Of a stretch of DNA of 64,000 bases, positions 5,879-43,703 are shown piece after piece (position 1 is the first letter of the stretch; each line of letters begins with the position of its first letter). Below the pieces are notes generated by a model, which saw nothing but the letters and a program-made list of their open reading frames with translations, was not told where the DNA came from and made no database searches. The translations under genes and the position numbers were made by a program. Origin of the DNA: Escherichia coli (lineage in GTDB: Bacteria; Pseudomonadota; Gammaproteobacteria; Enterobacterales; Enterobacteriaceae). The DNA lies in the NCBI RefSeq assembly GCF_044324875.1, contig NZ_CP172185.1, one strand, 5' to 3'.

Positions 5879-5968
5879 AATTCTTTCTTCTTGAGTAAGC
5901 GGCATCGCGCCGCGCTTGTTGAAAACGAAAAATTGCGGCTATTTTACCCATCAACGGGGGGGAGGCAA

Positions 5969-6646
5969 TCAGTGTTTACACAGGAGCTGCTCCAGTTCGT
6001 GCAACGAAGAAACGGTCCAGGTGGGCGCGATGCCTTCTGGTTGCTCGCGATTGTGCGCATTCAGCCAGCAGGTCGCAAGCCCGGCGTTGATGCCACCGAG
6101 AATATCGGACTCGGCAGTGTCGCCAACCATCAGCACGCGTGAACGGTCAGGATTGCCCGCCTGTTCCAGCGCATAATCGAAAATTTTCTTATTCGGTTTG
6201 GCAACGCCAACTTCTTCGGAAATCACCAGCAAATCGAAATAATCACGCAGGCCCGTGCGTTCCAGACGCACTTGCTGCAAGGCGCTAAAGCCGTTGGTGA
6301 TGATGCCGATTTTGGCGTTGCCACGAATGGCGTTAAGCAGAGAAACCGCGCCCGGCAGCGGCGTACAGATTTCCGCCATCGCATTAATAAAGGCTTCGTT
6401 GAGTTTACCCGGCTCGACGTTCAGTCGTTCGGCCCAGCTCTCAAACCGCCCGTGCTGAAGCTGTAATGAAGTGATCGCGCCGTTTTGATAATCCACCCAC
6501 AGTGGCTTATTAACGGCCTGATAGTCCTGAAAATCTTCAGCGGTAAAGGTGACACTGTAATCAAGAAACATCCGCTGCAGGCCGGTGAATGAGTCAAAGG
6601 TAAACAGCGTTTCATCGGCATCAAAGAAAATCCAGTCCCACTTCAT
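5969..6646 (-). CDS. yjjG: HAD-superfamily pyrimidine 5'-nucleotidase
   Basis: 225-aa ORF with HAD motif I ([10 protein letters not shown]); synteny between prfC and rimI. Confidence 0.85.
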
Positions 6647-10565: not shown

Positions 10566-11243
10566 TTAATAGGGATGCAACACATTACTTGCTTCGCAAT
10601 GCCGCATACATAACAGAATATCTGCGGCCTCCAACAACCCTGCATCAGAACTGACGCCCAGTTTCGACATCACATTAAATTTATGTGCACGGATCGTTTT
10701 GATATTGCGTTTAAGCTGCTCGGCAATTTGTGTCATTGAGTAGCCACGCGACATAAAGCGCAATATTTCTCTCTCCGTCGGGCTTAGCGTTCGGCTTTGA
10801 TTAATGTACCACTGATTGTTCAGTCGGTCGGTCGCCTGACGTACACCATTTAATGACAAAAAGAGTTCCTGATGAAAAATCTCCAGCGTTGACGCTTTAC
10901 TTAATACACCGTCCAGCGGTGATGGCGACAATGAACCAATCAGCCGAGCTTCAATATCATCATCCGCAATAACTAAACGCCGGGTACGCGGAAACTTAAT
11001 CGCCAGTTCAGTCAGGCAAGATAATCCCTCTCTGCGCTCACTTCTCATGGCAGAAAAAGAAAAAATGACCGCCGCAAACGAGATCCGCGACATGGCATCC
11101 TGAAATGACTCCTGACTGGTATAGGTATGGAGCTTATAAGGGTTACCCGCAAACTTTCTGAATAAACTCTCAATACCGATACTACTCATGACGCATTTTT
11201 CTATGAGTGCGACATTTCTCTTCTTAATTCGGCTGTGTTCCAT
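10566..11243 (-). CDS. bglJ: LuxR-family transcriptional regulator BglJ
   Basis: 225-aa ORF with C-terminal LuxR-type HTH; overlaps the upstream yjjQ. Confidence 0.85.
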
Positions 11244-11926
11244 TCTGCGGCATCTCCATAAACAGAAGGCAAGTTAAGTTCTCTTGCACCCTGCGCGCTA
11301 TTTATCCATGCATACATTTCAGCGTTGCTGTGAATTGCCAGTCGACGCATCGCACTGTTTTTTTGGGCGCTGATAGTTTTATTACTTTTCTTAAGCAATG
11401 AAGCTATCTGGTTGATGCCCCATCCTTTACCTAATAGCCGCAGTACCTTGCGCTCTGAAAGAGTGAGAATGACGGAGCGATAGCTAAAATCATGAGTTTC
11501 AGTCATTGCCGGAGAGGTCAGCATGGCGCTGATACGCTCTGCGTGCGTATTACCGGAACGTACGGTCTTGACCAGATTCTCAATGGGTTCAACATCAGAC
11601 AATAACGTCGCCGTAGGGCACATGAGCAATTCTACTGCCTGGGAATACCAGGATCGTGACACCATGAAAACCCAGTGAATTTCCCGATATTGTGAGATTA
11701 AAGAATAATAATGTTCACAAACAGAACGTGGATCTTCACTTTCACCGGCTAAATCAGCAATGACTAATCCGGAACGACGTAATTGTAATAAGGTAAGGTC
11801 CTCCGCAGAGGCGCTGGATATTATTTCATATTCAGGGAAGTGAGTCCTCATGACCTCTTTTAACCCTGCTTGCATAACAGGTATTTTACTGATAACAATT
11901 CCATTTTTGCAGCATCCTGGCAACAT
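11201..11926 (-). CDS. yjjQ: LuxR-family transcriptional regulator YjjQ
   Basis: 241-aa ORF with C-terminal LuxR-type HTH; yjjQ-bglJ operon arrangement with AT-rich upstream region. Confidence 0.85.
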
Positions 11927-12544
11927 ATTTCCTCCACATCCACTGTCTAAAAATTATGATGGTTTATTCAGGATATTCATTCCTTAAATGTTTCCAGCAA
12001 ATTAATAGATTAAGCGAATAAATTATCCTTAGCATTCACTTTCATATCAGCATACTCCTGCTGCACAACAACTCCACTGCATGTGTCAGAAGGTTAGCAT
12101 CAAATGATAACCTGGTGAAATAGCCTGGAGACATTTAAAATATCTACATTAAGTTGTTAGAAATACTTAATGAAAAACAGAATTCTCATTCATTTAATTT
12201 ATAATTAACTGATATCCCTTCCAGTAGAATGCAAAATCACACAATCAATATTTATTCAATAAAATCTGATAGTTTTAACTTGTAAAAATTAAAAAACGCG
12301 CCCAGTTATCTTTTATCCTGATTCGTAAAGGCTAAACAATAAATTTATTATAGTGATAATATTCATGTGATAATTTGTTTGCGGCGAGAGATAATTCGCT
12401 TTTTATCACCGAGCTTCTCCCGATAACCAGGATTAATCAGCGCAATTTTGATCTTAACCTACCGCAAAACAACCGTGCTTCATGATACAAATGGATTCTC
12501 ATTATCTGAACAATACGCAGCACGTCTATGACAAAGGGCGAGTT

Positions 12545-13315
12545 ATGCAAACTGAGCAACAGCGAGCCGTAACACGGCTTTGTATCCAGTGTGGATTATT
12601 TCTTTTGCAACATGGTGCGGAAAGCGCGTTGGTTGATGAGCTTTCCTCACGACTGGGTCGGGCGTTGGGGATGGACAGCGTCGAAAGTTCTATCTCTTCG
12701 AACGCCATAGTGCTGACAACCATTAAAGATGGGCAATGCCTGACATCGACACGTAAAAATCAAGATCGCGGCATTAATATGCATGTGGTGACTGAAGTCC
12801 AGCACATTGTGATTCTGGCGGAGCACCATCTGCTGGATTACAAAGGCGTAGAGAAACGATTTAGCCAAATTCAGCCATTACGTTACCCAAGATGGCTGGT
12901 AGCCTTAATGGTTGGCCTTTCTTGTGCCTGTTTCTGTAAACTCAATAAAGGTGGCTGGGATGGTGCCGTCATCACCTTCTTTGCCAGTACGGTCGCGATG
13001 TATATCCGCCAGCTGCTGGCACAACGTCATCTTCATCCACAAATCAACTTTTGCCTCACCGCTTTCGCCGCCACCACCATTTCCGGTTTGCTTTTGCAAC
13101 TCCCCACTTTCAGCAATACCCCCACCATTGCGATGGCCGCCAGCGTTCTGCTGCTGGTGCCGGGCTTTCCGTTGATTAATGCCGTCGCCGATATGTTTAA
13201 AGGCCACATCAATACCGGACTGGCACGCTGGGCGATCGCCAGTCTGCTGACACTGGCTACCTGCGTCGGCGTAGTGATGGCACTGACGATTTGGGGGCTA
13301 CGCGGATGGGTGTGA
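12545..13315 (+). CDS. yjjP: Inner-membrane protein YjjP (ThrE/DUF1212 family)
   Basis: Start placed at [12 protein letters not shown] (256 aa) inside the 277-aa track ORF; multi-TM protein. Confidence 0.75.
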
Positions 13316-26330: not shown

Positions 26331-26534
26331 ATGTTTGGTAACTTAGGACAGGCAAAAAAATATCTCGGCCAGGCGGCGAAGATGTTGATTGGCATTCCAG
26401 ACTACGACAACTACGTCGAGCATATGAAGACCAACCATCCCGACAAGCCGTACATGAGCTATGAAGAATTCTTCCGCGAACGCCAGAACGCGCGCTACGG
26501 CGGCGATGGTAAAGGCGGTATGCGCTGTTGTTAA
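26331..26534 (+). CDS. yjiX: Small conserved protein YjiX (DUF466)
   Basis: 67-aa ORF immediately downstream of btsT. Confidence 0.8.
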
Positions 26535-26544
26535 TGGAGAGAGC

Positions 26545-27501
26545 ATGAACCCGATTGCAGTTACCCTACTCACCGGTTTTTTAGGCGCGGGCAAAACTAC
26601 CCTGCTGCGCCATATTCTTAACGAACAACACGGCTACAAGATTGCCGTGATTGAAAACGAATTCGGCGAAGTCTCCGTTGATGATCAACTGATTGGCGAC
26701 CGCGCCACGCAGATCAAAACGCTGACCAACGGCTGCATCTGCTGTTCGCGCTCCAACGAGCTGGAAGACGCACTACTCGACCTGCTGGATAATCTCGACA
26801 AGGGCAATATTCAGTTCGACCGTCTGGTCATTGAATGCACCGGCATGGCCGATCCCGGCCCGATTATTCAGACCTTTTTCTCCCATGAGATTTTATGCCA
26901 GCGCTACCTGCTGGACGGCGTGATTGCGCTGGTGGACGCGGTACATGCCGATGAGCAGATGAACCAGTTCACCATCGCCCAGTCACAAGTGGGCTACGCC
27001 GACCGTATTCTGCTGACTAAAACCGACGTCGCAGGCGAAGCAGAAAAACTGCGCGAACGCCTGGCACGCATCAACGCCCGCGCACCGGTCTACACCGTCA
27101 CCCACGGCGACATCGACCTGGGCCTGCTGTTCAACACCAACGGTTTTATGCTGGAAGAAAACGTCGTCAGCACCAAACCGCGTTTCCACTTTATCGCGGA
27201 TAAACAAAACGATATTTCGTCGATTGTGGTGGAACTGGATTACCCGGTAGATATCAGCGAAGTTTCCCGCGTGATGGAAAACCTGCTGCTGGAATCGGCA
27301 GATAAACTGCTGCGTTACAAAGGGATGCTATGGATTGACGGCGAACCTAACCGCCTGCTGTTCCAGGGCGTCCAGCGCCTCTACAGCGCCGACTGGGACA
27401 GGCCGTGGGGCGATGAAAAACCGCATAGCACGATGGTGTTTATCGGGATTCAGCTGCCGGAGGATGAGATTCGGGCAGCGTTTGCGGGGTTGAGGAAGTA
27501 A
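26545..27501 (+). CDS. yjiA: CobW/P47K-family GTPase YjiA
   Basis: 318 aa from MNPIAVTLLTGFLGAGKTTLL (Walker A). Confidence 0.85.
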   Translation: MNPIAVTLLTGFLGAGKTTLLRHILNEQHGYKIAVIENEFGEVSVDDQLIGDRATQIKTLTNGCICCSRSNELEDALLDLLDNLDKGNIQFDRLVIECTGMADPGPIIQTFFSHEILCQRYLLDGVIALVDAVHADEQMNQFTIAQSQVGYADRILLTKTDVAGEAEKLRERLARINARAPVYTVTHGDIDLGLLFNTNGFMLEENVVSTKPRFHFIADKQNDISSIVVELDYPVDISEVSRVMENLLLESADKLLRYKGMLWIDGEPNRLLFQGVQRLYSADWDRPWGDEKPHSTMVFIGIQLPEDEIRAAFAGLRK

Positions 27502-27975: not shown

Positions 27976-28710
27976 TCAAACCTGATAGCAATCCACCAAA
28001 AATGCCATCATTTCACTGGCATCTTTGCTGTGATAAAAGCGCACCATTTTGCTGTTGAACTCCAGCGCACGAGCTGCGGGTACACTAATTGGATTGTAAC
28101 CGTGGCGCATTAACCAGCCGTTCATCATATGGCGACTGGTACGCTTGTTGCCATCAAAGAAAAACTGAAAATAAGCACCAAATAAAAACATTGCCAGCGC
28201 CCCTTCGAACGGTGGCATCTCTTTTATTTGTGCCACACCTGCGGCGAATATTCGATTCAGTTCAGGTGCACCTGCTTCAGTGGCTGGTGGAAAATGGGTG
28301 CCCAGTTCACCGAGATGAACGCGCGCATTGTAATGCAACTCTTCACCTTCGCCGCGAAAAACGCCCCACTCCAGCGCCTCATTACGCGCAATAATGCCGT
28401 TAAGCAACGTGAACGTTTTCTTATCAAGATCGAAACGCCCGGATTGCACAAGTTCAATCAGTTTTTTTGCGCTATCTGCCAGGTTCAACACCTGCTCAGT
28501 ATCACTGACCTTATGCCCGCCAACGGTGACGCCATCGAGCAGCGTTTTAACTTCAACAAAGGTATAGGGGTTATTTTCCAGTTGCGCGGCATCCCAGACA
28601 AACCCTGCCATATGCGTTTTGAAGGTAAACAAGGCCGCGCGCGTACCGACAATTTGCATCGCCGGGATGGCATTTGCATTCCAGCTCAGGTCCAGTAGTT
28701 TGGTTGTCAT
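27976..28710 (-). CDS. Fic/Doc-fold protein with non-canonical active-site motif QFFFDGNKRTSR (Doc-like xFxDGNKR, His replaced by Gln)
   Basis: Motif comparison with Fic HPFx(D/E)GNGRxxR and Doc HxFx(D/N)(A/G)NKR; AAGGA ribosome-binding site upstream. Confidence 0.55.
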   Translation of the reverse strand: MTTKLLDLSWNANAIPAMQIVGTRAALFTFKTHMAGFVWDAAQLENNPYTFVEVKTLLDGVTVGGHKVSDTEQVLNLADSAKKLIELVQSGRFDLDKKTFTLLNGIIARNEALEWGVFRGEGEELHYNARVHLGELGTHFPPATEAGAPELNRIFAAGVAQIKEMPPFEGALAMFLFGAYFQFFFDGNKRTSRHMMNGWLMRHGYNPISVPAARALEFNSKMVRFYHSKDASEMMAFLVDCYQV

Positions 28711-28753
28711 TAGAGGATCCTTGATTGCATGGTAAAGAGGATATTATTCCATA

Positions 28754-30853
28754 TTAAACCATCGCGTTATCCATCTGCTTTTCAAATGCCTGACGAATTA
28801 ATCCCATCACATAAGGAAGCTCAGAAAGATCGCTGAAACCTACTTCAACATCGCCATTGCCCCAACGGCCTATATCTGTGACATCTTTAGCCATACATTT
28901 TGGGTCAACCAGTTCATGAAATGGCATATTTAGTGATAAACGTAAGCGACTTTTTTGCGGCACCACATCAACAAAATTCGTCTCCGCTTTGAAGGCAACA
29001 TAGAGCTTAAATATTTCTCGCGTAACCCCAGCGTCCAGCGCCATAACGGCATCAGAAAGGCTGTCAAAAAGTACGCGGATATGCGTACCTTCTTCAAGTT
29101 GTGGGAAATCAGCAAGGACATATCCCGTTCCTCGTTCAACGACAGTGCGATAACGAGCCAACACGTCTTCCGAAAGTTTGGGGATCGCCCAGACGTCTAT
29201 TGCCAGCTCGGCCAGACGTTCCGCTCTCTTTTGTATCGCTGCACGATCCCATATTTCACATTGCCCTAACCCCGTGTTCAGGCGTAATGGACTTTCCTTA
29301 AAGCCACCTTTTATATCTCGCTTCTTCGCAAATGGACGGTCGCTGTAGCTTGAGTTATAGCCAGTTAACGTTAAATTACCCAACGTATGGAGCCACTTTT
29401 TATGGATTCGCTTCCATTCCGGACCAAGGTCATCGCGCCACTTCGCCGATAAATTAGGGTTCTGCGGCATGATATGTTCAATCGTATAAGTGTCAACATA
29501 GGCCCGTTCTTTACGATCGTGGTTTTCAAATCTACGTAGCCAATAGCTGCGATTACGGAAGTTGTAGAGGTCGCGAGTTTTCAGTTCACGTTGAAATTCA
29601 TCATCATCCGGGAAACGACGGTAGGAAGGCAGTTCCAGCAAATGTGCCGCAATGCTCTCCAGATAACGCTCTTTATCCAGCACTTTGTAAAACGTGGCGA
29701 AGGTTTTAGTAAATGAGTTAGTGGGAATGGCACAGACTGCGCGCCGGAAGATATACGACTCAATTAAACGCGTGGCACTTAAAAAATCCGCGGCAGAAAG
29801 AATTCCCTGTTTATAGTCATGATAAAGCACCAACAGGAACGGCCAGGCAGCATCGACTTTCAGCTCGCGTAGATCCTGAAATGCCATCTTTAAGGTTTTA
29901 TCCTTTTCGCTATCCAGCGCCATCGCACAAAAATAGTCAGCAAACGTACGAATATCCGCAACCAGCGCCCCCATCCCGCGATCCATCACTCCTGGTTTTC
30001 GCGCATAGCGTTTAAAGGCTTCATAGACATCACCAATTCGCGGAATCTCACCTGTTTTTACCGTCAGATAATTACGCATAAAACTGTCGAAATAGTCAGT
30101 GTATCCCTTCTGACCAAACGCCAGCTCCATGGGCCGCGAGTAATCGTCGTACAGTTGGCTTTGATGTTCTGGCTCCAGCCCCATCAGAACATAGTTGCGA
30201 ACCAGATCCGCCTGACTCAGCGCTTTTCCTGTTGAGTTCATGCTTTCGAAGATTAGTTGCGGATTATCCTGACCGCGATTCAAGGCGACATCCACAATCA
30301 GCAGTTTGGAAAGTCCCTGACATAACGCGGTGAAATTGCCGTGGAGTTTGCCTATTTGCTCATGGAAAAACTCAAAATTCTCTTTCACGCGTAGAGAGCA
30401 ATTTTCTGCCAGCGGTTTTTGTCTAATCAATGCCAGCAGGCTTTCTCTGTCCGTTTGCGTGAGCAGTAACTTAAAACCACGCTCGCCCGATTCATACGGA
30501 TTGAGCAGATAATAGTTTCGTAATTTCATGGCGGAGAAACCATCCATCACCTCGTCATCGCCAAGATGTCTGGACAACGCTTCCAGCAATAACATCGCCG
30601 TTGTCAGGCGTTGCTGACCGTCAATCACCAGTAATGGCGAAATCCCCGAAACCTGATATATGCCCTGTTCGATATACACCACCGAGCCGATGAAATGCGC
30701 CGGGATATCATCACGCTGCCCGGCACGTATTACATCGTCCCAGAGCTGGCGGCACTGTTCCTCTGACCATGAATAAGTACGCTGATAAATGGGAATAACG
30801 AATTGCTGAGAGCGTTTTAGAAAATCGAGTAATCGGGCTTCGGTGGCTTTCAT
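28754..30853 (-). CDS. GmrSD-like type IV (modification-dependent) restriction endonuclease, DUF262 (ParB-like NTPase) + DUF1524 (His-Me finger nuclease)
   Basis: N-terminal DGQQR motif (LLVIDGQQRLTT), C-terminal HIMPQNP His-Me-type motif; 699 aa; AGGAG ribosome-binding site. Confidence 0.7.
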   Translation of the reverse strand: MKATEARLLDFLKRSQQFVIPIYQRTYSWSEEQCRQLWDDVIRAGQRDDIPAHFIGSVVYIEQGIYQVSGISPLLVIDGQQRLTTAMLLLEALSRHLGDDEVMDGFSAMKLRNYYLLNPYESGERGFKLLLTQTDRESLLALIRQKPLAENCSLRVKENFEFFHEQIGKLHGNFTALCQGLSKLLIVDVALNRGQDNPQLIFESMNSTGKALSQADLVRNYVLMGLEPEHQSQLYDDYSRPMELAFGQKGYTDYFDSFMRNYLTVKTGEIPRIGDVYEAFKRYARKPGVMDRGMGALVADIRTFADYFCAMALDSEKDKTLKMAFQDLRELKVDAAWPFLLVLYHDYKQGILSAADFLSATRLIESYIFRRAVCAIPTNSFTKTFATFYKVLDKERYLESIAAHLLELPSYRRFPDDDEFQRELKTRDLYNFRNRSYWLRRFENHDRKERAYVDTYTIEHIMPQNPNLSAKWRDDLGPEWKRIHKKWLHTLGNLTLTGYNSSYSDRPFAKKRDIKGGFKESPLRLNTGLGQCEIWDRAAIQKRAERLAELAIDVWAIPKLSEDVLARYRTVVERGTGYVLADFPQLEEGTHIRVLFDSLSDAVMALDAGVTREIFKLYVAFKAETNFVDVVPQKSRLRLSLNMPFHELVDPKCMAKDVTDIGRWGNGDVEVGFSDLSELPYVMGLIRQAFEKQMDNAMV

Positions 30854-31137
30854 GAATGACTCCTGTCAAATTGCGCTGGCAAACGGTGTCATTATGCTGC
30901 GAATAAAAAATAAAAGTTAGCGTCTTTGTTTCTGCAAAAATACCATTCCAGGATAAATCAAAATATATTAAGAAACACCTCAAAACGCATTCATTAGAAC
31001 AATTAATATTTTCAATTCATATTTATAACGCATTGAAAATGATCGTGTTTTTGATCATCACAGCAATAGTTTGATATAACAAAGCATTCACTTCACATTG
31101 AATATCTCCCTCTTTTTCAGGGCAAGGAATGCTTTTT

Positions 31138-33483
31138 ATGTCATCAACTAATTTCAGTCAGATTGCAGCCTTCCTGTGGTCTGTCGCCGACCTGTTACGC
31201 GGCGATTTTAAACAATCACAATATGGGCGAATTATTCTCCCTTTCACTCTTCTTCGTCGTCTGGAATGCGTACTCGAAACAACGAAAGACGCGGTCATTG
31301 CCGAGGCGCAAAAAGTAAAAGCCATGAAACTGCCGGAGGAAGCCCAGGAGAAAATGATCCTGCGGGCGACTAATGGCCTCACGTTCTTTAATGCCTCAGC
31401 GATGGATCTCAGCAAAATGGGGCAAAATGGCATACAGGACAACCTGGAAAACTACATCCAGTCGTTCTCTTCGGATGCCCGCGAAATTTTCGAACACTTC
31501 AAGTTCAGCGAGTTTGTCGGACAGCTGGCGGATGCGAACTTGCTGTTCAAAGTGGTGCAAATATTCGCTAAAGCAGATTTATACCCGGAGCACGTCACCA
31601 ACCACGATATGGGGCTGGTGTTTGAGGAGCTGATCCGCCGTTTTGCCGAGAGTTCAAACGAAACCGCCGGGGAGCACTTTACCCCGCGTGATATCGTCAA
31701 TCTGACCACCTCGCTGGTGTTTTTCGATGATGATGATGCGCTCAATAAAGACGGCATCATCCGCACCATTTACGATCCAACGGCAGGAACCGGCGGCTTT
31801 CTCTCCTCCGGCATGGAGTACGTCCATAAACAAAACCCCAATGCCGTGATGCGCGCGTTTGGTCAGGAGTTAAACCCGGAATCCTACGCCATCTGCAAAG
31901 CCGACATGCTGATTAAGGGCCAGGACGTCAGCCTTATCAAACTCGGCAATACCCTTTCCAACGATCAACTCCCCGCAGAAAAATTTGATTACATGCTTTC
32001 TAATCCACCTTTCGGCGTGGACTGGAAAAAGATAGAAACCGACATCAACAACGAGCACAAACTCAAAGGTGCTGATGGTCGCTTTGGCCCCGGCCTGCCC
32101 CGCGTCTCTGACGGTTCGTTGCTGTTTCTGCTGCACCTGATCAGCAAAATGCGCGATGCCAAAAGCGGTGGCGGGCGGATCGGCATCATTCTTAATGGTT
32201 CCCCATTATTTACCGGCGGCGCGGGCAGCGGTGAAAGCGAGATCCGCCGCTACATTCTGGAAGCGGATTTGCTGGAAGGCATTATCGCCCTGCCCACCGA
32301 CATGTTTTACAACACCGGTATCGCTACCTATGTTTGGGTGCTGTCCAACAAAAAAGCGCCAGAACGCAAAGGCAAAGTCCAGCTTATCGACGGCAGCAAC
32401 CTGTGCGGCAAGATGCGTAAATCGCTGGGGTCAAAACGCAATATTCTCGGAGACGAGGATATTGGTTTAATCACCCGCACGTTTGGCGATTTCGAACCCG
32501 TTGCCACCACTACGCTTGCGGCGTTAGGCCTGGAGAAAGCACCCGAACAAAAATCCAGCCGGGGACGCCAGCCCGCAACAACCAAAACCGAGGCGGCAAA
32601 AACTTTTGCCAGCAAAGTCTTTCACAGCACCGAGTTTGGCTATCGTCGCATCACCGTTGAGCGCCCGTTACGCCTGTCGGCTCAGATAAGTGATGACGCC
32701 ATTGCCACATTACGTTTTGCGCCGAAGCCGTTTAACGCTCCGATGGCGCAACTGTATGACGCCTTTGCTTTCCAGTGGCAGGACGGTCATTACGGCGACT
32801 TAACAGCGGTAGAAAGTGAAGCCCGCGCCATTCTTAAAGCCGATTTTAGCGAGCTGAAAGAGAAGCAAATTAAAGATCTGCTCGACAGCAAATTATGGCT
32901 GGCCCAGCGCGGGTTAATGGAAAAAGCGCGGCGTATTCAGGCGGCGATGGGTATGCAGGCGGGCGGCAAAGACACCGTTAGCAATGACTTTAATCAGTTC
33001 CAGTTGACGCTGAAAGAGGCGTTCAAAACCGCAGGCGTGAAGCTGGATGCGAAAGAGAACAAGCAGTTTATCGATGCTATCACCCGCAAAAACCCGGACG
33101 CCGAGCCGGTAGTCAGCAAGGTACTGAAAGAAGCGGCCCAACCGTTGTACGGCGCGTTTGAGTACCACGGAAAGGTTGTGGAGTTTGAGCCGGATGGCGA
33201 CCTGCGTGATAACGAGAATGTGCCGTTAAATCCGGCGGTATCTACCAGCGAGTTGATCGAGGGTTACTTCAAAGCAGAAGTATTGCCGCACGTCGCGGAT
33301 GCGTGGATTAACGCCGATAAGCGCGATGCGAAAGATGGGGATATCGGGATTGTGGGGTATGAAATTCCGTTTAATCGCCATTTTTATGTTTATCAACCGC
33401 CAAGGCCGCTGGAGGAGATTGATGCGGATCTGGATGCAGTAAGCGCTGAAATTATGAAACTGTTGCAGGAGGTACATTCCTGA
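31138..33483 (+). CDS. hsdM: Type I restriction-modification system methyltransferase subunit HsdM (unusually long, ~781 aa)
   Basis: N6-adenine MTase motifs ([10 protein letters not shown] motif I, NPPFG motif IV); canonical HsdM N- and C-termini; start placed at the ATG 9 nt downstream of AAGGAA. Confidence 0.9.
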
Positions 33484-34772
33484 TGGCAGGGTTAAATAAA
33501 TATCAGGCGTATCCGGAGTATAGGGATTCTGGGGTGGAGTGGATCGATGCAATCCCTTTTCATTGGGAAGTGCTACCAACATTTTCTCTATGTGAGGCAT
33601 CGACGAAGAAAAATATCGATGGAGCAGAAAACAATGTGCTCTCATTGAGTTATGGAAAAATTATTCCCAGAGATATAGAAACAAACTTCGGGCTTTTACC
33701 AGAGTCATTTAATACTTATCAAATCGTTGAAAATGGCGATATTATTTTAAGATTAACTGATCTACAAAATGATAAAAACAGTTTACGCGTAGGATTAGTC
33801 AAACAAAAAGGGATTATTACATCTGCATATTTAAAACTCAATTCACAAGGAAGTATGCTATCCGAATATTTATATCGCCTACTTCATTCATATGATACGA
33901 CTAAAGTTTTTTATGGCATGGGAGGAGGGCTGAGACAATCAATGAAATTTGAGGATTTCAGAAGATTGCCCTTACTGCTTCCATCGAAAAACGAACAGGG
34001 AAAAATAATTGATTTCCTCGACCACGAAACAGCAAAAATCGATAACCTGATCGAAAAACAACAACAACTTATTGAACTACTGAAAGAAAAACGTCAGGCA
34101 GTGATTAGCCATGCGGTGACCAAAGGGCTAAATCCTGATGTGCCGATGAAAGATTCTGGGGTTGAGTGGTTGGGTGAAGTTCCGAAACACTGGCACATAT
34201 GCAAGTTAAAATGGTTTGCTAATTTGAAAAGTGGTGATTTTATAACCAGCAATTCAATAGAACCAGAAGGAAACTATCCTGTTTATGGTGGAAATGGATT
34301 AAGAGGATATTATTCTCATTTTACACACAATGGTGAATATGTTCTTATTGGTAGACAAGGTGCTCTTTGCGGAAATATAAATTACGCAATTGGAAAATTT
34401 TGGGCTTCAGAACATGCTGTTGTTGTCACCCCAAACGAAAGAGCTGTTACAATATGGTTAGGAGAATTATTAAGAATAATGAACTTAAACCAATATTCAG
34501 TTTCTGCTGCACAACCGGGGCTTGCGGTTGAAAGAATTACTGATTTATATATTCCAATCCCACCATATCAAGAGCAAATAAATATCGGAACTTATATATC
34601 TAAATATATTTCTCTAGATAAAAAATTGATTGAGCATAGTACAGATAATATTGAACTCCTAAAAGAACGCCGCACCGCCCTTATCTCCGCCGCCGTCACC
34701 GGCAAAATCGACCTACGCAACTGGACCGCGCCCATCCCCGAAGCGGAAACACCCACGGAGGTCAGCGCATGA
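33483..34772 (+). CDS. hsdS: Type I R-M specificity subunit HsdS (two target-recognition domains)
   Basis: Duplicated conserved segments (DSGVEWIDAIPFHWEV / DSGVEWLGEVPKHWHI) flank two variable AT-rich TRDs; start overlaps the hsdM stop (TGATG). Confidence 0.9.
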   Translation: MAGLNKYQAYPEYRDSGVEWIDAIPFHWEVLPTFSLCEASTKKNIDGAENNVLSLSYGKIIPRDIETNFGLLPESFNTYQIVENGDIILRLTDLQNDKNSLRVGLVKQKGIITSAYLKLNSQGSMLSEYLYRLLHSYDTTKVFYGMGGGLRQSMKFEDFRRLPLLLPSKNEQGKIIDFLDHETAKIDNLIEKQQQLIELLKEKRQAVISHAVTKGLNPDVPMKDSGVEWLGEVPKHWHICKLKWFANLKSGDFITSNSIEPEGNYPVYGGNGLRGYYSHFTHNGEYVLIGRQGALCGNINYAIGKFWASEHAVVVTPNERAVTIWLGELLRIMNLNQYSVSAAQPGLAVERITDLYIPIPPYQEQINIGTYISKYISLDKKLIEHSTDNIELLKERRTALISAAVTGKIDLRNWTAPIPEAETPTEVSA

Positions 34773-37700
34773 GCAACGACATAACAAAAGAGATCAACCT
34801 GCAAAACGACATCATCGCGCAGATGGCAGAAAAAGGCTGGATTGTCGGCAAAGGTGACGGCTACGACCGGGAACGAGCACTATACGCACAGGATACCTTA
34901 AACTTCGTACAAACCACCCAACCGCAAGAGTGGGAAAAATTCGCCCGCGTTTACCCCAACGACACCGAGCGCCATTTCCTCGACGCACTGGTCGCGCAGC
35001 TTAAAAAAGCCGACAGCAACGCCACCGATATTCAGTCGCGCACCAGGGGTACGCTCGGCGTACTTCGCCACGGCCTGAAAATCCGCAATGCCCGTTTTTC
35101 GCTGTGCCAGTTTAAACCGGAACATAATCTCAACCCGGAAACGCTGGCGCGCTATCAGCAGAATATCTGCCGCATTGTGCCGGAACTGATCTACAGCCCT
35201 TATGCCTCAAATAGCGTCTTTGCAGAAACGGGCGTGAAAGCCAAAAAATGGCGCATCGACCTGGTGCTGTTTATCAACGGCCTGCCAATTGCCACGCTGG
35301 AGCTGAAATCCGAATTCAAACAGGCGGTGCAGAACGCCATTGCGCAGTATAAAAAAACCCGCCTGCCGAAAGATCCCGCTACCAATAAGCCCGAACCGCT
35401 GCTGACCTTCAAGCGCGGGGCGCTGGTGCATTTTGCCGTCAGCCAGTATGACGTTTATATGACCACCAAACTCGTGGGTGACAGCACCTTCTTCCTGCCG
35501 TTTAACAAAGGCACCAAAGATGGTGGTGCAGGCAATGAGATCCCCGAAGATACCCACCGCTACGCCACCGATTATCTGTGGAATGAAGTACTGCTGCCGG
35601 ACAACTTATTAAAAATCCTCGCCAGTTTTGTCCATTTGCAGATTGAAGAAAAAGAGGAGTGGAACGGGCTGAAAGCGAAGAAAGAGAGCCTGATTTTCCC
35701 GCGCTATCACCAGTGGGATGTAGTCAACAAACTGCTGGAGGCCGCGACGGTCGAAGGCACCGGCCATAAATACCTGATCCAGCACAGCGCAGGTTCCGGA
35801 AAGTCGAACTCCATTGCCTGGACCGCCCACCAGCTTTCTCGTCTGTACGACGCAAACGGGGAAAAACAGTTTCATTCTGTTATCGTGGTGACGGACCGCA
35901 CAGTGCTGGACGACCAGCTTCAGGACGCCATCTGGCAGTTCGAGCACGCCGACGGCGTGGTCGGGCGCATCAATAATAGAGAGGGCGATGGCTCTAAATC
36001 GGAAAAGCTCGCCAACGCGCTGGAAAACTCGCAACCGATTATTATTGTCACCATCCAGACGTTCCCGTTCGTATTGAAAGCTATCGAAAACAGTGTCAGC
36101 CTGAAGCAGCGTAAATATGCGGTGATTGCCGACGAAGCACACTCCTCGCAGAGCGGTTCTACCGCCCGTCAGCTTAAAGAAGTGCTGATGAGCGAAGAGA
36201 TGGATGATGACGTGGTACTGTCGTCAGAAGATATTCTGGATGCGACCATCGCTGCACGGAAAGGCAGCAGTAACCTGAACTACTACGCCTTTACCGCCAC
36301 GCCAAAATCCAAAACCCTGGAACTCTTTGGTCGCTGTCCGCGTCCCGATGAGCCGGCCTCAAAAACCAATAAACCTGAGGCCTTCCACGTCTACTCCATG
36401 CGCCAGGCAATCGAAGAAGGCTTTATCCTCGACGTGCTGAAAAACTACACCAACTACAAAGTGGCGTATCAGTTGCTGCAAAAGCTGGAAGACAAGGACC
36501 GCGAAGTCGACAGCAAAAAGGCAAAGATAAAGCTCAACCAATGGGTGACACTGCACGACCACAACATCTCGCAGAAGGTGAAGGTGATTGTGGAGCACTT
36601 CCGCAAACATGTGATGCACCTGCTTGGCGGCCAGGCTAAAGCGATGGTGGTCACCAGTTCACGCAAAGCCGCTGTGCGCTACAAGCTGGCGTTTGATAAA
36701 TACATTAGCGAGAACAATTACCAGAAAATCAGCGCGATGGTGGCATTTTCCGGGGAAGTTGAATTCCAGGAAGGCGACCATAACAGCCTGGCATTGTTAA
36801 AGCAGAAATTTACTGAAATAAACATGAACCCCGGCCTGAAAGGGCGGGATATGCGCAAAGCCTTCGACAGCGATGATTATCAGGTGATGTTGGTCGCCAA
36901 TAAATTCCAGACCGGTTTTGACCAGCCAAAGCTGTGCGCGATGTACGTGGATAAACCCCTCGGTGGCGTCGAGTGCGTGCAGACACTCTCCCGCCTGAAC
37001 CGCACCTATCCGGGCAAAGCGGAATCGGGCACTTTTGTCCTCGATTTTTATAATGATCCGGACGAGATCCTCGGCGCATTCCAGCCCTATTTCCAGACGG
37101 CGGAACTGACCGATGTCAGCGATCCGCAGCAGGTATTCGATCTGTTTGAAAAACTGCGCGCCACGCAGATTTTTCAGTGGCATGAAGTCGAGCAGTTCTG
37201 CGAGGCGTACTTCATCAAAAATAAATCGAATGCGGCGATCAGTAATATCTGTAAACCGGCGGTCGAACGCTGGAAAAAGCGTTATCTGATGGCAATAGAC
37301 GCCTATTTGACCGCCAAAGAGATGTTCGAGCGCACTAAAAAAACGGGCGATACGGTGTTAATCACCAATGCGGAAAACAGTTTTAAAGCCTGTAAGCAGG
37401 AGAAAGATCGTCTGGAGATTTTCAAGAAAGATCTCGGCAGCTTTGTTCGCTTTTATGAGTTTATGTCGCAAATCGTTGAGTACGATGACAAGGATCTGGA
37501 AAAGCTAAGCCTGTTTGCCCGTCATCTGCGTCCGCTGCTGCATGAGCAACGTCTGGAAGAGGATGAAATTGATCTCAGTAATGTGGAGATGAGTCACTAT
37601 CGTTTATCGAAAATCCATGAGCAAGATTTACGCTTACAGGAAGAAACGTCTGACTATACGCTGGATGCAAGTAATGATATTGGTACGGCAAAAGCGAAAG

Positions 37701-38032
37701 ATAAAAAAGAGGAGTTTTTATCGCAGGTGCTTTCTCGGATGAATGAATTATTCATTAGCGACCATTTGACCGACAAAGATATGATCAGCAATGCTTTTGC
37801 GGTGTATAACAAAATAACTGAAAATGAAAATGTTATGACACAAATTAAAAACAATCCGCCAGAACAAGCGATTCTTGGTGATTTCCTCCAGGCAGTTGAT
37901 AATGCTGTAATGGACAGTAATGACGCTCGGCAAGAATTTATGTTGCAATATTTATCCGATCCAGTTCGGGCAAAGGGCTTTGCTTATCTGATGTTTGATA
38001 TGCTCACGGGGAAAATTGCTTTGCCAACATAA
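34769..38032 (+). CDS. hsdR: Type I R-M restriction subunit HsdR (SF2 helicase/endonuclease)
   Basis: Walker A (SAGSGKSNS) and DEAH box (IADEAHSSQ); 1087 aa; ATGA overlap with the hsdS stop. Confidence 0.9.
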   Translation: MSNDITKEINLQNDIIAQMAEKGWIVGKGDGYDRERALYAQDTLNFVQTTQPQEWEKFARVYPNDTERHFLDALVAQLKKADSNATDIQSRTRGTLGVLRHGLKIRNARFSLCQFKPEHNLNPETLARYQQNICRIVPELIYSPYASNSVFAETGVKAKKWRIDLVLFINGLPIATLELKSEFKQAVQNAIAQYKKTRLPKDPATNKPEPLLTFKRGALVHFAVSQYDVYMTTKLVGDSTFFLPFNKGTKDGGAGNEIPEDTHRYATDYLWNEVLLPDNLLKILASFVHLQIEEKEEWNGLKAKKESLIFPRYHQWDVVNKLLEAATVEGTGHKYLIQHSAGSGKSNSIAWTAHQLSRLYDANGEKQFHSVIVVTDRTVLDDQLQDAIWQFEHADGVVGRINNREGDGSKSEKLANALENSQPIIIVTIQTFPFVLKAIENSVSLKQRKYAVIADEAHSSQSGSTARQLKEVLMSEEMDDDVVLSSEDILDATIAARKGSSNLNYYAFTATPKSKTLELFGRCPRPDEPASKTNKPEAFHVYSMRQAIEEGFILDVLKNYTNYKVAYQLLQKLEDKDREVDSKKAKIKLNQWVTLHDHNISQKVKVIVEHFRKHVMHLLGGQAKAMVVTSSRKAAVRYKLAFDKYISENNYQKISAMVAFSGEVEFQEGDHNSLALLKQKFTEINMNPGLKGRDMRKAFDSDDYQVMLVANKFQTGFDQPKLCAMYVDKPLGGVECVQTLSRLNRTYPGKAESGTFVLDFYNDPDEILGAFQPYFQTAELTDVSDPQQVFDLFEKLRATQIFQWHEVEQFCEAYFIKNKSNAAISNICKPAVERWKKRYLMAIDAYLTAKEMFERTKKTGDTVLITNAENSFKACKQEKDRLEIFKKDLGSFVRFYEFMSQIVEYDDKDLEKLSLFARHLRPLLHEQRLEEDEIDLSNVEMSHYRLSKIHEQDLRLQEETSDYTLDASNDIGTAKAKDKKEEFLSQVLSRMNELFISDHLTDKDMISNAFAVYNKITENENVMTQIKNNPPEQAILGDFLQAVDNAVMDSNDARQEFMLQYLSDPVRAKGFAYLMFDMLTGKIALPT

Positions 38033-38096
38033 AACACGTTGATAGCCGGGGTCGCACTTTCTACCCCGGCCATATTGTTTACAATAAGGAATAGCT

Positions 38097-38810
38097 ATGC
38101 TGAAGATGATTAAAGATTTTAAATTCAAAAAATACATTAAAAAATTACGTGAAGAAGGTTTGTTTTTTTATGTTTCTTTCGGTTTTATATTTACATTGTT
38201 AATGGAAGTTGATAATCAATTACCATACTATCTTCAACAAGACTTCTTCTTTTATACACTTATAGGATTTATGCCAATCAATATATTCTTTGTTTTGATT
38301 TGCACAAATGTATTTTTCAATGCCGCCCACACACTTATTTCACCTTATAAAGGTCAAAGAGTTGGTGAGAAATTTCTCTCTGAACTTGATAAAAGAACGC
38401 AACAAATTGGCTTTATTATTTCATTTATATGTTTTGGCATGACATTGTTTTGTGCTCTGGCGTGGTTGCTGTTTTTTGAGATGAATAATGAAAGTTACTA
38501 CGCAAAATATACATTAGATTTTTTGGCTGTTTTTATCATTATGATTATGTTTTCTTCAGCAGTTAATCCAGTCATGAGAAGAATATTCCAAAAAATGAAG
38601 GGATCGGACTCACATGGAAATTCAAAAATAATTCTTATAATTATAATCATTGTGTTATTGCTATTATTGCCAATTGCGTACATTATCAATAAAAATAAAA
38701 CAATTGAAATCAATATTAAGAAAGAAACTTATCAGCAAATAAAAGAAAAAACAAAGATGAAACCAGAAGATTATATCAAAAAATTGATTGCTGATATTAA
38801 ATTCAACTAA
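38097..38810 (+). CDS. Low-GC multi-pass membrane protein of unknown function (237 aa)
   Basis: Strongly AT-rich ORF with several hydrophobic segments and a Lys-rich C-terminus; AAGGAA ribosome-binding site; 64 bp downstream of hsdR. Confidence 0.55.
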   Translation: MLKMIKDFKFKKYIKKLREEGLFFYVSFGFIFTLLMEVDNQLPYYLQQDFFFYTLIGFMPINIFFVLICTNVFFNAAHTLISPYKGQRVGEKFLSELDKRTQQIGFIISFICFGMTLFCALAWLLFFEMNNESYYAKYTLDFLAVFIIMIMFSSAVNPVMRRIFQKMKGSDSHGNSKIILIIIIIVLLLLLPIAYIINKNKTIEINIKKETYQQIKEKTKMKPEDYIKKLIADIKFN

Positions 38811-42430: not shown

Positions 42431-43663
42431 ATGCCACGTTTTTTTGCCCGCCATGCCGCTACGCTGTTTTTCCCGATGGCGTTGATTTTGTATGACTTTG
42501 CCGCGTACCTGTCGACGGATCTGATCCAGCCAGGGATCATTAATGTGGTCCGTGATTTTAATGCCGATGTCAGTCTGGCCCCTGCTGCCGTCAGTCTCTA
42601 TCTTGCTGGCGGTATGGCGTTACAGTGGCTGCTGGGGCCGCTTTCCGACAGAATTGGCCGCAGGCCGGTGCTGATTACCGGGGCGCTAATTTTTACCCTT
42701 GCCTGCGCCGCAACAATGTTCACCACGTCAATGACACAATTTCTTATCGCGCGTGCAATTCAGGGCACCAGTATCTGTTTTATTGCCACCGTTGGTTATG
42801 TCACGGTGCAGGAGGCGTTCGGACAGACAAAAGGAATTAAGTTGATGGCGATTATCACCTCCATCGTACTGATTGCGCCGATTATCGGCCCGCTTTCCGG
42901 CGCAGCTCTGATGCACTTTATGCACTGGAAAGTCCTTTTTGCCATCATTGCGGTTATGGGTTTTATCTCATTTGTTGGCTTACTGCTGGCGATGCCAGAG
43001 ACGGTGAAGCGCGGCGCGGTTCCGTTTAGCGCCAAAAGCGTCTTGCGCGATTTTCGTAATGTCTTTTGCAATCGGCTGTTCCTCTTTGGCGCAGCAACCA
43101 TCTCTTTAAGCTATATCCCGATGATGAGCTGGGTGGCTGTCTCGCCGGTGATCCTTATCGATGCAGGCGGCTTAACAACTTCGCAGTTCGCCTGGACACA
43201 GGTTCCGGTGTTCGGCGCGGTGATTGTCGCGAATGCCATCGTGGCGCGTTTCGTTAAAGATCCAACCGAACCGCGATTTATCTGGCGTGCCGTCCCCATT
43301 CAACTGGTCGGCCTCGCGCTGTTGATTATCGGCAATCTGCTGTCGCCGCACGTCTGGCTGTGGTCGGTGCTGGGCACCAGTCTGTATGCTTTCGGGATTG
43401 GTTTGATTTTCCCGACCTTATTCCGCTTTACGCTGTTTTCCAATAACTTACCGAAAGGGACCATCTCCGCATCGCTAAATATGGTGATCCTGATGGTGAT
43501 GTCTGTCTCGGTCGAAATCGGCCGCTGGCTGTGGTTTAACGGCGGTCGCTTGCAGTTTCATCTGTTAGCCGTTGTGGCAGGCGTTATCGTCGTTTTCACC
43601 CTGGCCGGATTGCTTAATCGCGTGCGCCAACATCAGGCTGCCGAGCTGGCGGAGGAGCGGTGA
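42431..43663 (+). CDS. mdtM: MFS multidrug efflux transporter MdtM
   Basis: 410-aa 12-TM MFS protein from [14 protein letters not shown]. Confidence 0.85.
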
Positions 43664-43703
43664 TTTTTGCGCGATCCTGCCGTCAGGCTCTATTCTTAAC
43701 GTT

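Follow-up and report, generated by a model that had tools for sequence, protein, structure and literature searches.

The hsdS gene in the analysed window, a 64,000-nucleotide stretch of Escherichia coli DNA, carries two AT-rich blocks at its target-recognition domains (TRDs). The preliminary description took these blocks as the signature of TRD exchange that changes specificity, and the question is whether the TRDs are in fact exchanged and what the AT-richness says about it.

The hsdM–hsdS–hsdR operon and its HsdS protein

The gene hsdS (33483-34772, + strand, 429 aa; Pfam Methylase_S, PADLOC Specificity_I) encodes the specificity subunit and is located between hsdM and hsdR, with overlapping stop and start codons on both sides. 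The Type I methyltransferase subunit gene hsdM (31138-33483, + strand) contains Pfam HsdM_N and N6_Mtase and matched PADLOC MTase_I PDLC03029 with 932 bits. Its ATG at 31138, the choice of gene callers, gives a product of 781 aa, and an upstream ATG at 31129 in the same ORF gives 784 aa. The gene hsdR (34769-38032, + strand) encodes a Type I restriction/translocase subunit of 1087 aa with Pfam HSDR_N, ResIII/SWI2_SNF2 and T1R_D3-like domains, and scored 183 bits against TIGR00348, under the cut-off of that model. As read from the junction sequences, the hsdM stop and the hsdS start overlap by 1 nt (TGATG), and an overlap, ATGA, likewise joins the stop of hsdS to the start of hsdR. The three genes form a single overlapping operon, probably with translational coupling. 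Promoter and terminator scans of the operon gave matches at or under shuffle expectation.

The genes yjiA and yjiN bracket the operon, which belongs to the immigration control region of E. coli; a GmrSD gene and yjiR were also found around it. The GmrSD-family Type IV restriction gene (28754-30853, - strand; Pfam GmrSD_N, GmrSD_C and DUF5655) shares the defence island with the operon as its divergent neighbour, and the same neighbour was also observed at E. coli and Citrobacter loci. The window showed only 94-96% identity to complete E. coli genomes here, which reflects the known polymorphism of the immigration control region. A single base in 9290 separated the window from two E. coli assemblies, and on this ground an origin in an Escherichia other than E. 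coli, which the 94-96% had suggested, was rejected.

HsdS matched PF01420 (Methylase_S) in two stretches with 88 bits (cut-off 22) and PADLOC Specificity_I over aa 5-417 with E = 1.6e-113. An identical protein (P0001) is already deposited as E. coli 'restriction endonuclease subunit S' on 199 contigs; GCA_027274645.1 and GCA_044683685.1 are examples of assemblies with the window allele. HsdS is built as a two-fold internal repeat, and each of its halves combines a DSGVEW..P.HW block with a globular TRD and a long helix that ends in ELLKE(K/R)R.A.IS.AVTG. The duplicated DSGVEW...HW blocks noted in the preliminary description are real; they are located at aa 15-28 and 224-237, and the corresponding DNA (33525-33556 and 34152-34183) is 78% identical over 32 nt. 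A second internal repeat, at (I)ELLKE+R, was found at 34070-34088 and 34649-34667 with 89% identity.

The AF2 model of HsdS (pLDDT 83.6) has two globular domains and two helices of about 45 residues (169-214 and 362-405). Foldseek matched this model to 1YF2, 3OKG, 5YBB_D, 7VS4_C, 2Y7C_A (EcoKI) and 7BST_A (EcoR124I) with E values from 4e-19 to 1e-8, and the TM scores with 5YBB_D were 0.67/0.73. By sequence, the only solved relatives of the TRDs were 7EEW (a V. vulnificus MTase) and 1YDX, the TRD of 7EEW being closest to TRD2 (E = 8e-18); the literature searched on 7EEW offered no help towards a recognition sequence. With two Methylase_S TRDs, two long helices, the HsdS fold, and hsdM and hsdR adjoining, the gene is a Type I hsdS.

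Cassette structure of hsdS and TRD exchange among alleles

The window allele was compared with seven other E. coli alleles from complete genomes, and the cassette borders were set by the real allele breakpoints. The N-terminal conserved segment (33483-33542, + strand, aa 1-20 up to DSGVEW, GC 0.48) is the left recombination flank of TRD1; it was 94-96% identical at the nucleotide level in six of the seven other alleles, and homology stopped at 33542. Next follows the TRD1 cassette of type B (33543-34003, + strand, aa 21-174), with a GC3 of 0.275. The central conserved region (34004-34183, + strand, aa 175-234, GC 0.42) includes the long helix CR1 and the second DSGVEW..P.HW block. It showed 90-96% nucleotide identity in all seven other alleles and is the crossover substrate common to both TRDs. 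The TRD2 cassette of type A (34184-34655, + strand, aa 235-391, GC3 0.19) holds the first ~30 residues of helix CR2. Homology to all other alleles picked up again at 34621-34665, and the C-terminal conserved segment (34656-34772, + strand, aa 392-429, LLKERRTALISAAVTGKIDLRNW..., GC 0.63) is the right recombination flank.

The allele of OkiPb01695 matched window positions 33000-34183 (the hsdM 3' end, the N-terminal segment, TRD1 and the central region) at 95.7% and contained an unrelated TRD2. The alleles of A37 and GmM077 matched from 34004/34013 to 35300 (the central region, TRD2, the C-terminal segment and the hsdR 5' end) at 96.3-96.5% and contained two different TRD1s. The remaining four alleles had only the conserved segments in common with the window hsdS. 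Across the seven sampled complete genomes, the window TRD1 was found only in allele L003, and TRD2 was common, at ~96% nucleotide identity, to alleles L001 and L002, whose TRD1s differ. Tracts resembling L003 and tracts resembling L001/L002 have about 34030-34160 in common, and the exchange breakpoints sit at the edges of conserved segments. No immediate parent was present among the sampled alleles, all of which were at least 3.5% diverged at the nucleotide level. The alignment bore out the proposal of independent TRD exchange, in that each variable region swaps on its own; identical TRDs in all alleles, named beforehand as the result that would speak against it, were not observed, and unrelated TRDs occurred among the sampled alleles.

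Among 120 database homologues, the identities of TRD1 and TRD2 were bimodal and mutually uncorrelated, and the central region of the same homologues was 46-100% identical (at least 59% in all but one). The family was present in 116 E. coli genomes. Forty-two proteins built on the E. coli scaffold contained at least 16 TRD types in at least 17 combinations; these counts are lower bounds because the homologues were gathered by similarity to the query, and the type frequencies are biased in the same way. The window allele is the combination B+A, and its partner alleles include B+E (OkiPb01695), C+A (A37) and F+A (GmM077). As TRD1, type B was paired with five different TRD2 types; as TRD2, type A was paired with at least six TRD1 types (seven counting the truncated fragment K). 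Type B was also found in position 2 of several alleles, with ~71% nucleotide and 73-84% amino acid identity, and type A was present in both positions in P0044 and P0055. Judged from their sequences, the alleles form a TRD-mosaic series, in which the conserved regions are highly identical and unrelated TRDs assort independently. By analogy with characterised enzymes, B+A would differ in specificity from B+E or C+A.

Base composition of the TRDs and its interpretation

Two AT-rich blocks had been reported in hsdS, and calculation confirmed them, with a GC of 0.35 in TRD1 and 0.33 in TRD2 compared with about 0.51 in hsdM/hsdR. The gene is far from the uniform GC that had been named as a contrary result. 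The ranges first given for the variable regions (about 33600-33960 and 34200-34620) were correct in location and slightly narrower than the breakpoint-defined cassettes. With those ranges, GC was 0.453 in the N-terminal segment, 0.327 in TRD1, 0.427 in the central region, 0.333 in TRD2 and 0.539 in the C-terminal segment; the reference values were 0.493 for the 64-kb window, 0.519 for hsdM and 0.498 for hsdR. The TRDs differed in GC from hsdM+hsdR (chi2 = 91.7, p ~1e-21) and from the conserved parts of hsdS (p ~4e-8). The conserved segments, described as backbone-like, are so in aggregate because their pooled GC was 0.506 versus 0.507 for hsdM+hsdR, but they are uneven when taken segment by segment: the central region was somewhat low at about 0.42-0.43 (p = 0.04) and the C-terminal segment was high.

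AT-richness as a signature of exchange held in part only: it marks where the TRDs are, but neither proves nor dates their exchange. AT-rich troughs were present in all seven other alleles despite their unrelated TRDs, in Citrobacter, Pectobacterium, Klebsiella, Vibrio, Acinetobacter and a 63%-GC contig, and in the EcoKI hsdS of K-12. Because AT-richness is thus a constant trait of TRDs, it gives no date for exchange, and the mosaic reading is upheld by the allele comparison and not by composition alone.

The same observations bear on the idea that the blocks were recently imported from a low-GC donor and are still unameliorated, so that composition would date a transfer into the window allele. 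A GC3 of 0.19-0.28 in the TRDs versus 0.61 in the flanking genes is a classical foreign-DNA signature, and TRD types of the window hsdS do turn up in low-GC genera, Acinetobacter and Vibrio among them. However, recent import would not predict equal troughs in every allele and in EcoKI, and the TRDs were richer in AT than the hsdM/hsdR that accompany them, low-GC hosts and the 63%-GC contig included. Furthermore, a TRD type shared between genera was no more identical than HsdM/HsdR (83-87% versus 81-85% in one comparison, 72-77% versus 58-73% in another), and since the cross-genus identity of TRDs was not above that of HsdM/HsdR, no recent inter-genus transfer was seen. We consider recent import unlikely.

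A GC3 this low also bears on whether the AT-richness is a by-product of the amino acids of a DNA-reading domain (Asn, Lys, Ile, Tyr, Phe), without evolutionary signal. FYMINK residues were slightly more frequent in the TRDs than in HsdM/HsdR (0.33 versus 0.29), but when the TRD amino acids were re-coded with hsdM/hsdR codon usage, GC rose to 0.485-0.495 from the observed 0.33-0.35. Because re-coding would restore GC to that level, the AT bias of the TRDs is almost wholly synonymous; the synonymous-site calculation refutes the by-product explanation, which is left with very little probability.

Slightly less probable again is a phase-variable system of the shufflon type, in which TRDs would be switched within one cell by site-specific inversion with silent hsdS copies. 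The short internal direct repeats of hsdS superficially resemble those of such systems, but tblastn found a single hsdS in the 64-kb window, the central conserved sequence was unique, no recombinase gene was adjacent, and hsdS contained no long inverted repeats and no simple-sequence or tandem repeats; moreover, the allelic differences lie between strains. Chance fluctuation without boundary structure is hardly credible. In its favour, patches of comparable AT-richness do exist elsewhere in the 64 kb, in only about 3-5% of segments of equal length; this reading is refuted by the p value against the flanking genes, by composition steps within a few tens of bases of the independently set homology breakpoints, and by repetition of the pattern in all other alleles.

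We are therefore left with high confidence that the gene is the canonical HsdS gene of a chromosomal Type I operon, that its TRDs are independent cassettes reassorted by recombination, and that their AT-richness is synonymous. By definition, a Type I HsdS guides m6A methylation and restriction to a bipartite asymmetric target. If the gene works like Type I enzymes that have been solved and characterised, each of its TRDs would read one half-site, two HsdM subunits would dock on the two antiparallel helices, which would also fix the spacer, and addition of HsdR would give an enzyme restricting unmethylated targets. On this reading, homologous recombination in the N-terminal, central and C-terminal conserved segments reassorts old TRD lineages, kept as a standing pool, from strain to strain, and each new TRD pairing is expected to yield a new bipartite specificity. 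TRD swapping within a family generates new specificities (PMC5399793, PMC3510504). Independent TRD exchange is a textbook route to new Type I specificities and is already known, and the AT-rich pattern is visible already in EcoKI hsdS, so little new is added. The results do have a modest but real practical use: the cassette map, together with the partner alleles, would permit half-site assignment once the methylomes of two or three strains exist, and the synonymous-bias calculation states cleanly what the AT-richness is and is not.

The AT bias most likely stems from a distinct evolutionary regime of the TRD pool, in which TRDs pass between many hosts, mutation is biased towards AT and codon usage is weakly selected. 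The data are compatible with horizontal exchange in repeated rounds, with mutational bias under weak selection, and with some selected property of AT-rich sequence. That it is actively maintained and not a passive relic is doubtful, marginally more so than recent import; maintenance could serve binding of H-NS-type silencers, slowed translation, or sharp limits to the conserved GC-normal recombination substrates. Behind this proposal stands the persistence of the bias in every allele, host and Type I family, even with shared TRD types of about the same age as the scaffold. Literature searches on the codon usage or GC of hsdS yielded nothing of direct use; Sharp et al. reportedly dealt with the subject in 1992.

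Relationship to known Type I systems

EcoKI (Type IA, K-12) resembles the window system in having two TRDs with N-terminal, central and C-terminal conserved regions, in its location in the immigration control region, and in the 1-nt overlap of hsdM and hsdS (for EcoKI, PMC3510504). The compositional profile of EcoKI hsdS is the same, with a central hump between two AT-rich troughs (0.31-0.39) and a C-terminal segment rich in GC, and new alleles of the EcoKI series arise, as those of the window family appear to, through recombination in conserved regions. Reassortment of TRDs in the classical enterobacterial hsdS allele series (EcoKI/EcoBI/StySPI/StySQ) is reported to have been described by Fuller-Pace and by Gann et al. 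(via PMC12707154). In contrast to EcoKI, whose gene order is R, M-S and whose HsdM has 529 aa, the window has the order M-S-R in one overlapping operon and an HsdM of 781 aa with a C-terminal extension of ~320 aa.

In silico, membership of a Type I family is taken as HsdM/HsdR identity above about 90% to its members (PMC5399793). HsdM was 27% identical (over 320 aa) and HsdS 19% identical to those of EcoKI, and Type IA was rejected. Type IC (EcoR124I) was likewise rejected, as phmmer against the EcoR124II M protein 7BST_D gave only 94 bits (E = 6.7e-26), in the MTase core. Type IB (EcoAI) systems have a shorter HsdM and a longer HsdS with extended conserved regions (PMC3510504), and the window proteins (HsdM of 781 aa, HsdS of 429 aa) are set apart from EcoAI by this description only.

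Type ID (StySBLI/EcoR9I/KpnAI) and Type IE (KpnBI) are, like the window system, enterobacterial chromosomal Type I systems, and Type ID is the third family reported from the immigration control region in a review. Type ID is defined by high identity or complementation with StySBLI/EcoR9I/KpnAI subunits and by 6 bp between the methylated adenines, and Type IE by high identity with the subunits of KpnBI. The StySBLI HsdM is reported to be ~50% identical to staphylococcal HsdMs of ~500 aa. The length of the window HsdM and its score under the TIGR00497 cut-off argue indirectly against Type ID membership, and the indirect evidence as a whole is conflicting. Family letters are absent from both NCBIfam and PADLOC. 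A separate proposal, held with the same low confidence as active maintenance of the AT bias, is that the operon belongs to a Type I family still without a letter.

Sau1 of S. aureus resembles the window family in its large TRD pool on a constant scaffold and in the occasional presence of one TRD type in both position 1 and position 2 (PMC5399793). It differs in family and host and in that its TRD half-sites have been experimentally assigned. In the domain movement (DoMo) of Helicobacter pylori hsdS (Furuta et al. 2011, as cited in PMC5399793), a TRD type moves between positions via internally repeated conserved sequences, as in the window family. Here, however, the position-2 copies of type B have diverged from the position-1 copies, and its movement between positions is therefore old.

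The hsd operon and its family

The hsdS gene (33483-34772, + strand) is an ORF of 429 aa with two Pfam Methylase_S stretches, and its limits agree exactly with those given in the preliminary description. It lies downstream of the Type I methyltransferase gene hsdM (31138/31129-33483, + strand; HsdM_N and N6_Mtase domains) and upstream of hsdR (34769-38032; HSDR_N, ResIII/SWI2_SNF2 and T1R_D3-like domains), and PADLOC models identified all three as Type I components. Overlapping stop and start codons at the hsdM/hsdS (TGATG) and hsdS/hsdR (ATGA) junctions suggest a single translationally coupled operon. The operon is flanked by yjiA (26461-27501; cobW-like) and yjiN (43572-44984; DUF445), with a Fic gene, a GmrSD Type IV restriction gene and yjiR nearby. 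The yjiA-yjiN locus is the enterobacterial immigration control region (PMC12707154). The window derives from E. coli; positions 29483-38772 differed from assemblies GCA_044683685.1 and GCA_027274645.1 by 1 base in 9290. The identical HsdS protein (e.g. EHS0462584.1, UPI000BE2118C) was found on 199 contigs.

Type IA was rejected because HsdM was 27% identical to EcoKI HsdM, and Type IC because the match to the EcoR124 M protein was weak. Type IB was set apart by size, as a 781-aa HsdM with a 429-aa HsdS is unlike the short-M/long-S pattern. Type ID has been reported as the third family of the immigration control region (PMC12707154), but the HsdM of the Type ID system StySBLI is described as sharing about 50% identity with staphylococcal HsdMs of ordinary size, which does not fit the HsdM of the window. 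Scores for TIGR00497 (hsdM) and TIGR00348 (hsdR) were below the NCBI cut-offs. The operon may be a member of a Type I family that has been given no letter. HsdM and HsdR were 98% identical (aa) to those of strain A37, and flanking DNA was 93-98% identical in seven sampled E. coli loci. Under the in-silico rule of >90% identity in HsdM/HsdR (PMC5399793), the system groups with the compared E. coli alleles; relatives in other genera were more distant (58-85% in HsdM/HsdR). Pfam covered only aa 12-458 of HsdM, leaving the C-terminal ~320 aa (aa ~460-781; 32515-33483) without a family match, and this part varied in length between genera (HsdM of 659-787 aa in relatives).

Several neighboring genes were also recorded. 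Upstream of hsdM, a Fic-family gene (weak Pfam match) and a 699-aa GmrSD-type gene are divergent (27976-30853, - strand); the latter carries an additional C-terminal DUF5655, and in A37 an IS4 element interrupts its counterpart. The Citrobacter amalonaticus locus has this GmrSD gene on the downstream side of hsdR and a brnTA toxin-antitoxin pair upstream. Immediately after hsdR, an AT-rich ORF (38097-38810, + strand) encodes a 237-aa predicted membrane protein, annotated as a hypothetical protein at the same position in A37; no significant family match was obtained (Pfam DUF898 sub-threshold; nothing in NCBIfam or PADLOC). Some relatives have an additional gene between hsdS and hsdR: a RhuM-family gene in Vibrio vulnificus (5254-6264 of that locus) and a DUF4357/RAMA gene in a GC-rich metagenomic contig (2320-3186).

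Composition of hsdS

The preliminary description had reported AT-rich variable regions between conserved segments of backbone-like composition. In its ranges, GC was 0.453 (N-terminal), 0.327 (TRD1, the first target-recognition domain), 0.427 (central), 0.333 (TRD2) and 0.539 (C-terminal), against 0.493 for the window, 0.519 for hsdM and 0.498 for hsdR. Segment limits were then reset to the positions at which other alleles gain or lose nucleotide homology to the window. GC and GC3 were 0.48 and 0.55 for the N-terminal segment (33483-33542), 0.35 and 0.275 for TRD1 (33543-34003), 0.42 and 0.38 for the central region (34004-34183), 0.33 and 0.19 for TRD2 (34184-34655), and 0.63 and 0.72 for the C-terminal segment (34656-34772). 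The AT-richness of the TRDs was thus confirmed (GC 0.33-0.35; p ~1e-21 versus hsdM+hsdR, p ~4e-8 versus the conserved parts of hsdS). The conserved parts were backbone-like when pooled (0.506 versus 0.507 in hsdM+hsdR) but uneven, with a somewhat low value in the central region and a high one in the C-terminal segment. The duplication of the DSGVEW..HW block was confirmed: the copies occupy aa 15-28 and 224-237, and 33525-33556 agrees with 34152-34183 in 78% of 32 nt. Together with a further repeat, ELLKE(K/R)R (34070-34088 and 34649-34667), they represent the two halves of the internal two-fold repeat that HsdS proteins typically have.

More AT-rich sequence was present elsewhere in the window: 47251-49621, covering a gene for a 696-aa pentapeptide-repeat protein (47604-49694), and two patches with GC <0.36, at 11821-12601 near a LuxR-type regulator ORF (11201-11926) and at 62161-63091 overlapping a DUF2686 gene (62803-63633). 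A 1746-aa inverse-autotransporter/invasin-like adhesin with many Big_1 domains is encoded at 52249-57489.

Independent exchange of the two TRDs

Composition by itself cannot show TRD exchange, and alleles were therefore compared. Of 5426 complete E. coli genomes, 116 had the hsd family (80-99% nt, megablast), and none of the 116 carried the full hsdS of the window. Seven E. coli loci spread over the ranking were sampled and aligned. Strain OkiPb01695 was 95.7% identical over 33000-34183 and then had an unrelated TRD2. Strains A37 and GmM077 were 96.3-96.5% identical over 34004/34013-35300, with two different TRD1s; the TRD1 of A37 also occurred in FHI_NMBU_03 and that of GmM077 in SCU-105, each with another TRD2. 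Only the conserved segments were common to the window and four sampled alleles. In GF43 the N-terminal 20 HsdS residues also differed (MATYKNYQQTNLL..., corresponding to 33487), placing the left breakpoint at the hsdM/hsdS junction and not in the usual N-terminal block. The OkiPb01695-like and A37/GmM077-like tracts overlap by ~130 bp in the central region (34030-34160), an obvious putative crossover substrate.

Among the best 120 database homologues, TRD1 and TRD2 identities were each bimodal (50-100% or unalignable) and uncorrelated with each other, while the central region was 46-100% identical in all (at least 59% in 119). Clustering of 42 proteins having the E. coli scaffold gave at least 16 TRD types in 17 combinations. 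The window allele combines type B (TRD1) with type A (TRD2); type B paired with five TRD2 types and type A with at least six TRD1 types. Type B was also found at position 2 of several alleles, with 73-84% aa identity (~71% nt in strain 33E), and in both positions of one Vibrio parahaemolyticus protein, and type A in both positions of two metagenomic proteins, as in the domain movement described for other families (PMC5399793). The proposed TRD exchange is thus supported by TRD1 and TRD2 assorting separately across strains; composition was clearly not uniform, and the TRDs were clearly not the same in all alleles. This mosaicism is textbook hsdS behavior, in an allele already deposited. A phase-variable mechanism was ruled out, as the window holds a single hsdS without silent copies and no recombinase gene is adjacent; no simple-sequence repeats or long inverted repeats were found in hsdS.

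An AlphaFold2 model of HsdS (21-sequence alignment; pLDDT 83.6, pTM 0.72) showed globular domains at aa ~13-166 and 222-359 and long helices at 169-214 (CR1) and 362-405 (CR2), matching the solved HsdS structures 1YF2, 3OKG, 5YBB_D (TM 0.67/0.73), PacII S, EcoKI and EcoR124I. By analogy with Type I enzymes, each TRD would read one half-site, and the antiparallel helices would set the spacer and hold two HsdM subunits; M2S1 would methylate and R2M2S1 would restrict unmodified targets. Swapping a single TRD alters one half-site in Type I enzymes (PMC3510504, PMC5399793), and exchange would probably do the same here. At the start of CR2, ~30 residues (aa 362-391; 34566-34655) are variable and AT-rich and move together with TRD2. 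This makes the two conserved regions asymmetric, conserved DNA spanning nearly all of CR1 but just the last ~14 residues of CR2.

Meaning of the AT-richness

Re-coding the TRD amino acids with hsdM/hsdR codon usage gave an expected GC of 0.485-0.495 versus 0.33-0.35 observed; the bias is thus synonymous and not due to amino-acid content. Every family allele compared, whatever its TRDs, had TRD GC of 0.32-0.40 (GC3 0.18-0.30), central GC of 0.40-0.44 and C-terminal GC of 0.60-0.63. Related operons were compared from Citrobacter, Pectobacterium, Klebsiella, Vibrio, Acinetobacter and a 63%-GC contig, and in each of them the TRDs were richer in AT than the hsdM/hsdR of the same operon. The archetypal hsdS of EcoKI (K-12), which belongs to another family, shows the same profile, with two troughs, a hump in the center and a GC-rich C-terminus. 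AT-richness, previously read as a signature of exchange, marks the TRD positions but is a persistent feature of the TRD pool and dates no event. Same-type TRDs were 83-87% identical (aa) in Citrobacter and Pectobacterium versus 81-85% for HsdM/HsdR, and 72-77% versus 58-73% in Klebsiella, Vibrio and Acinetobacter. This similarity indicates that the TRD lineages are old, and no recent inter-genus TRD import was visible in these five genera. Candidate causes of the bias are circulation through a broad pool of hosts, a mutational bias towards AT under weak selection on codons, or some selected property.
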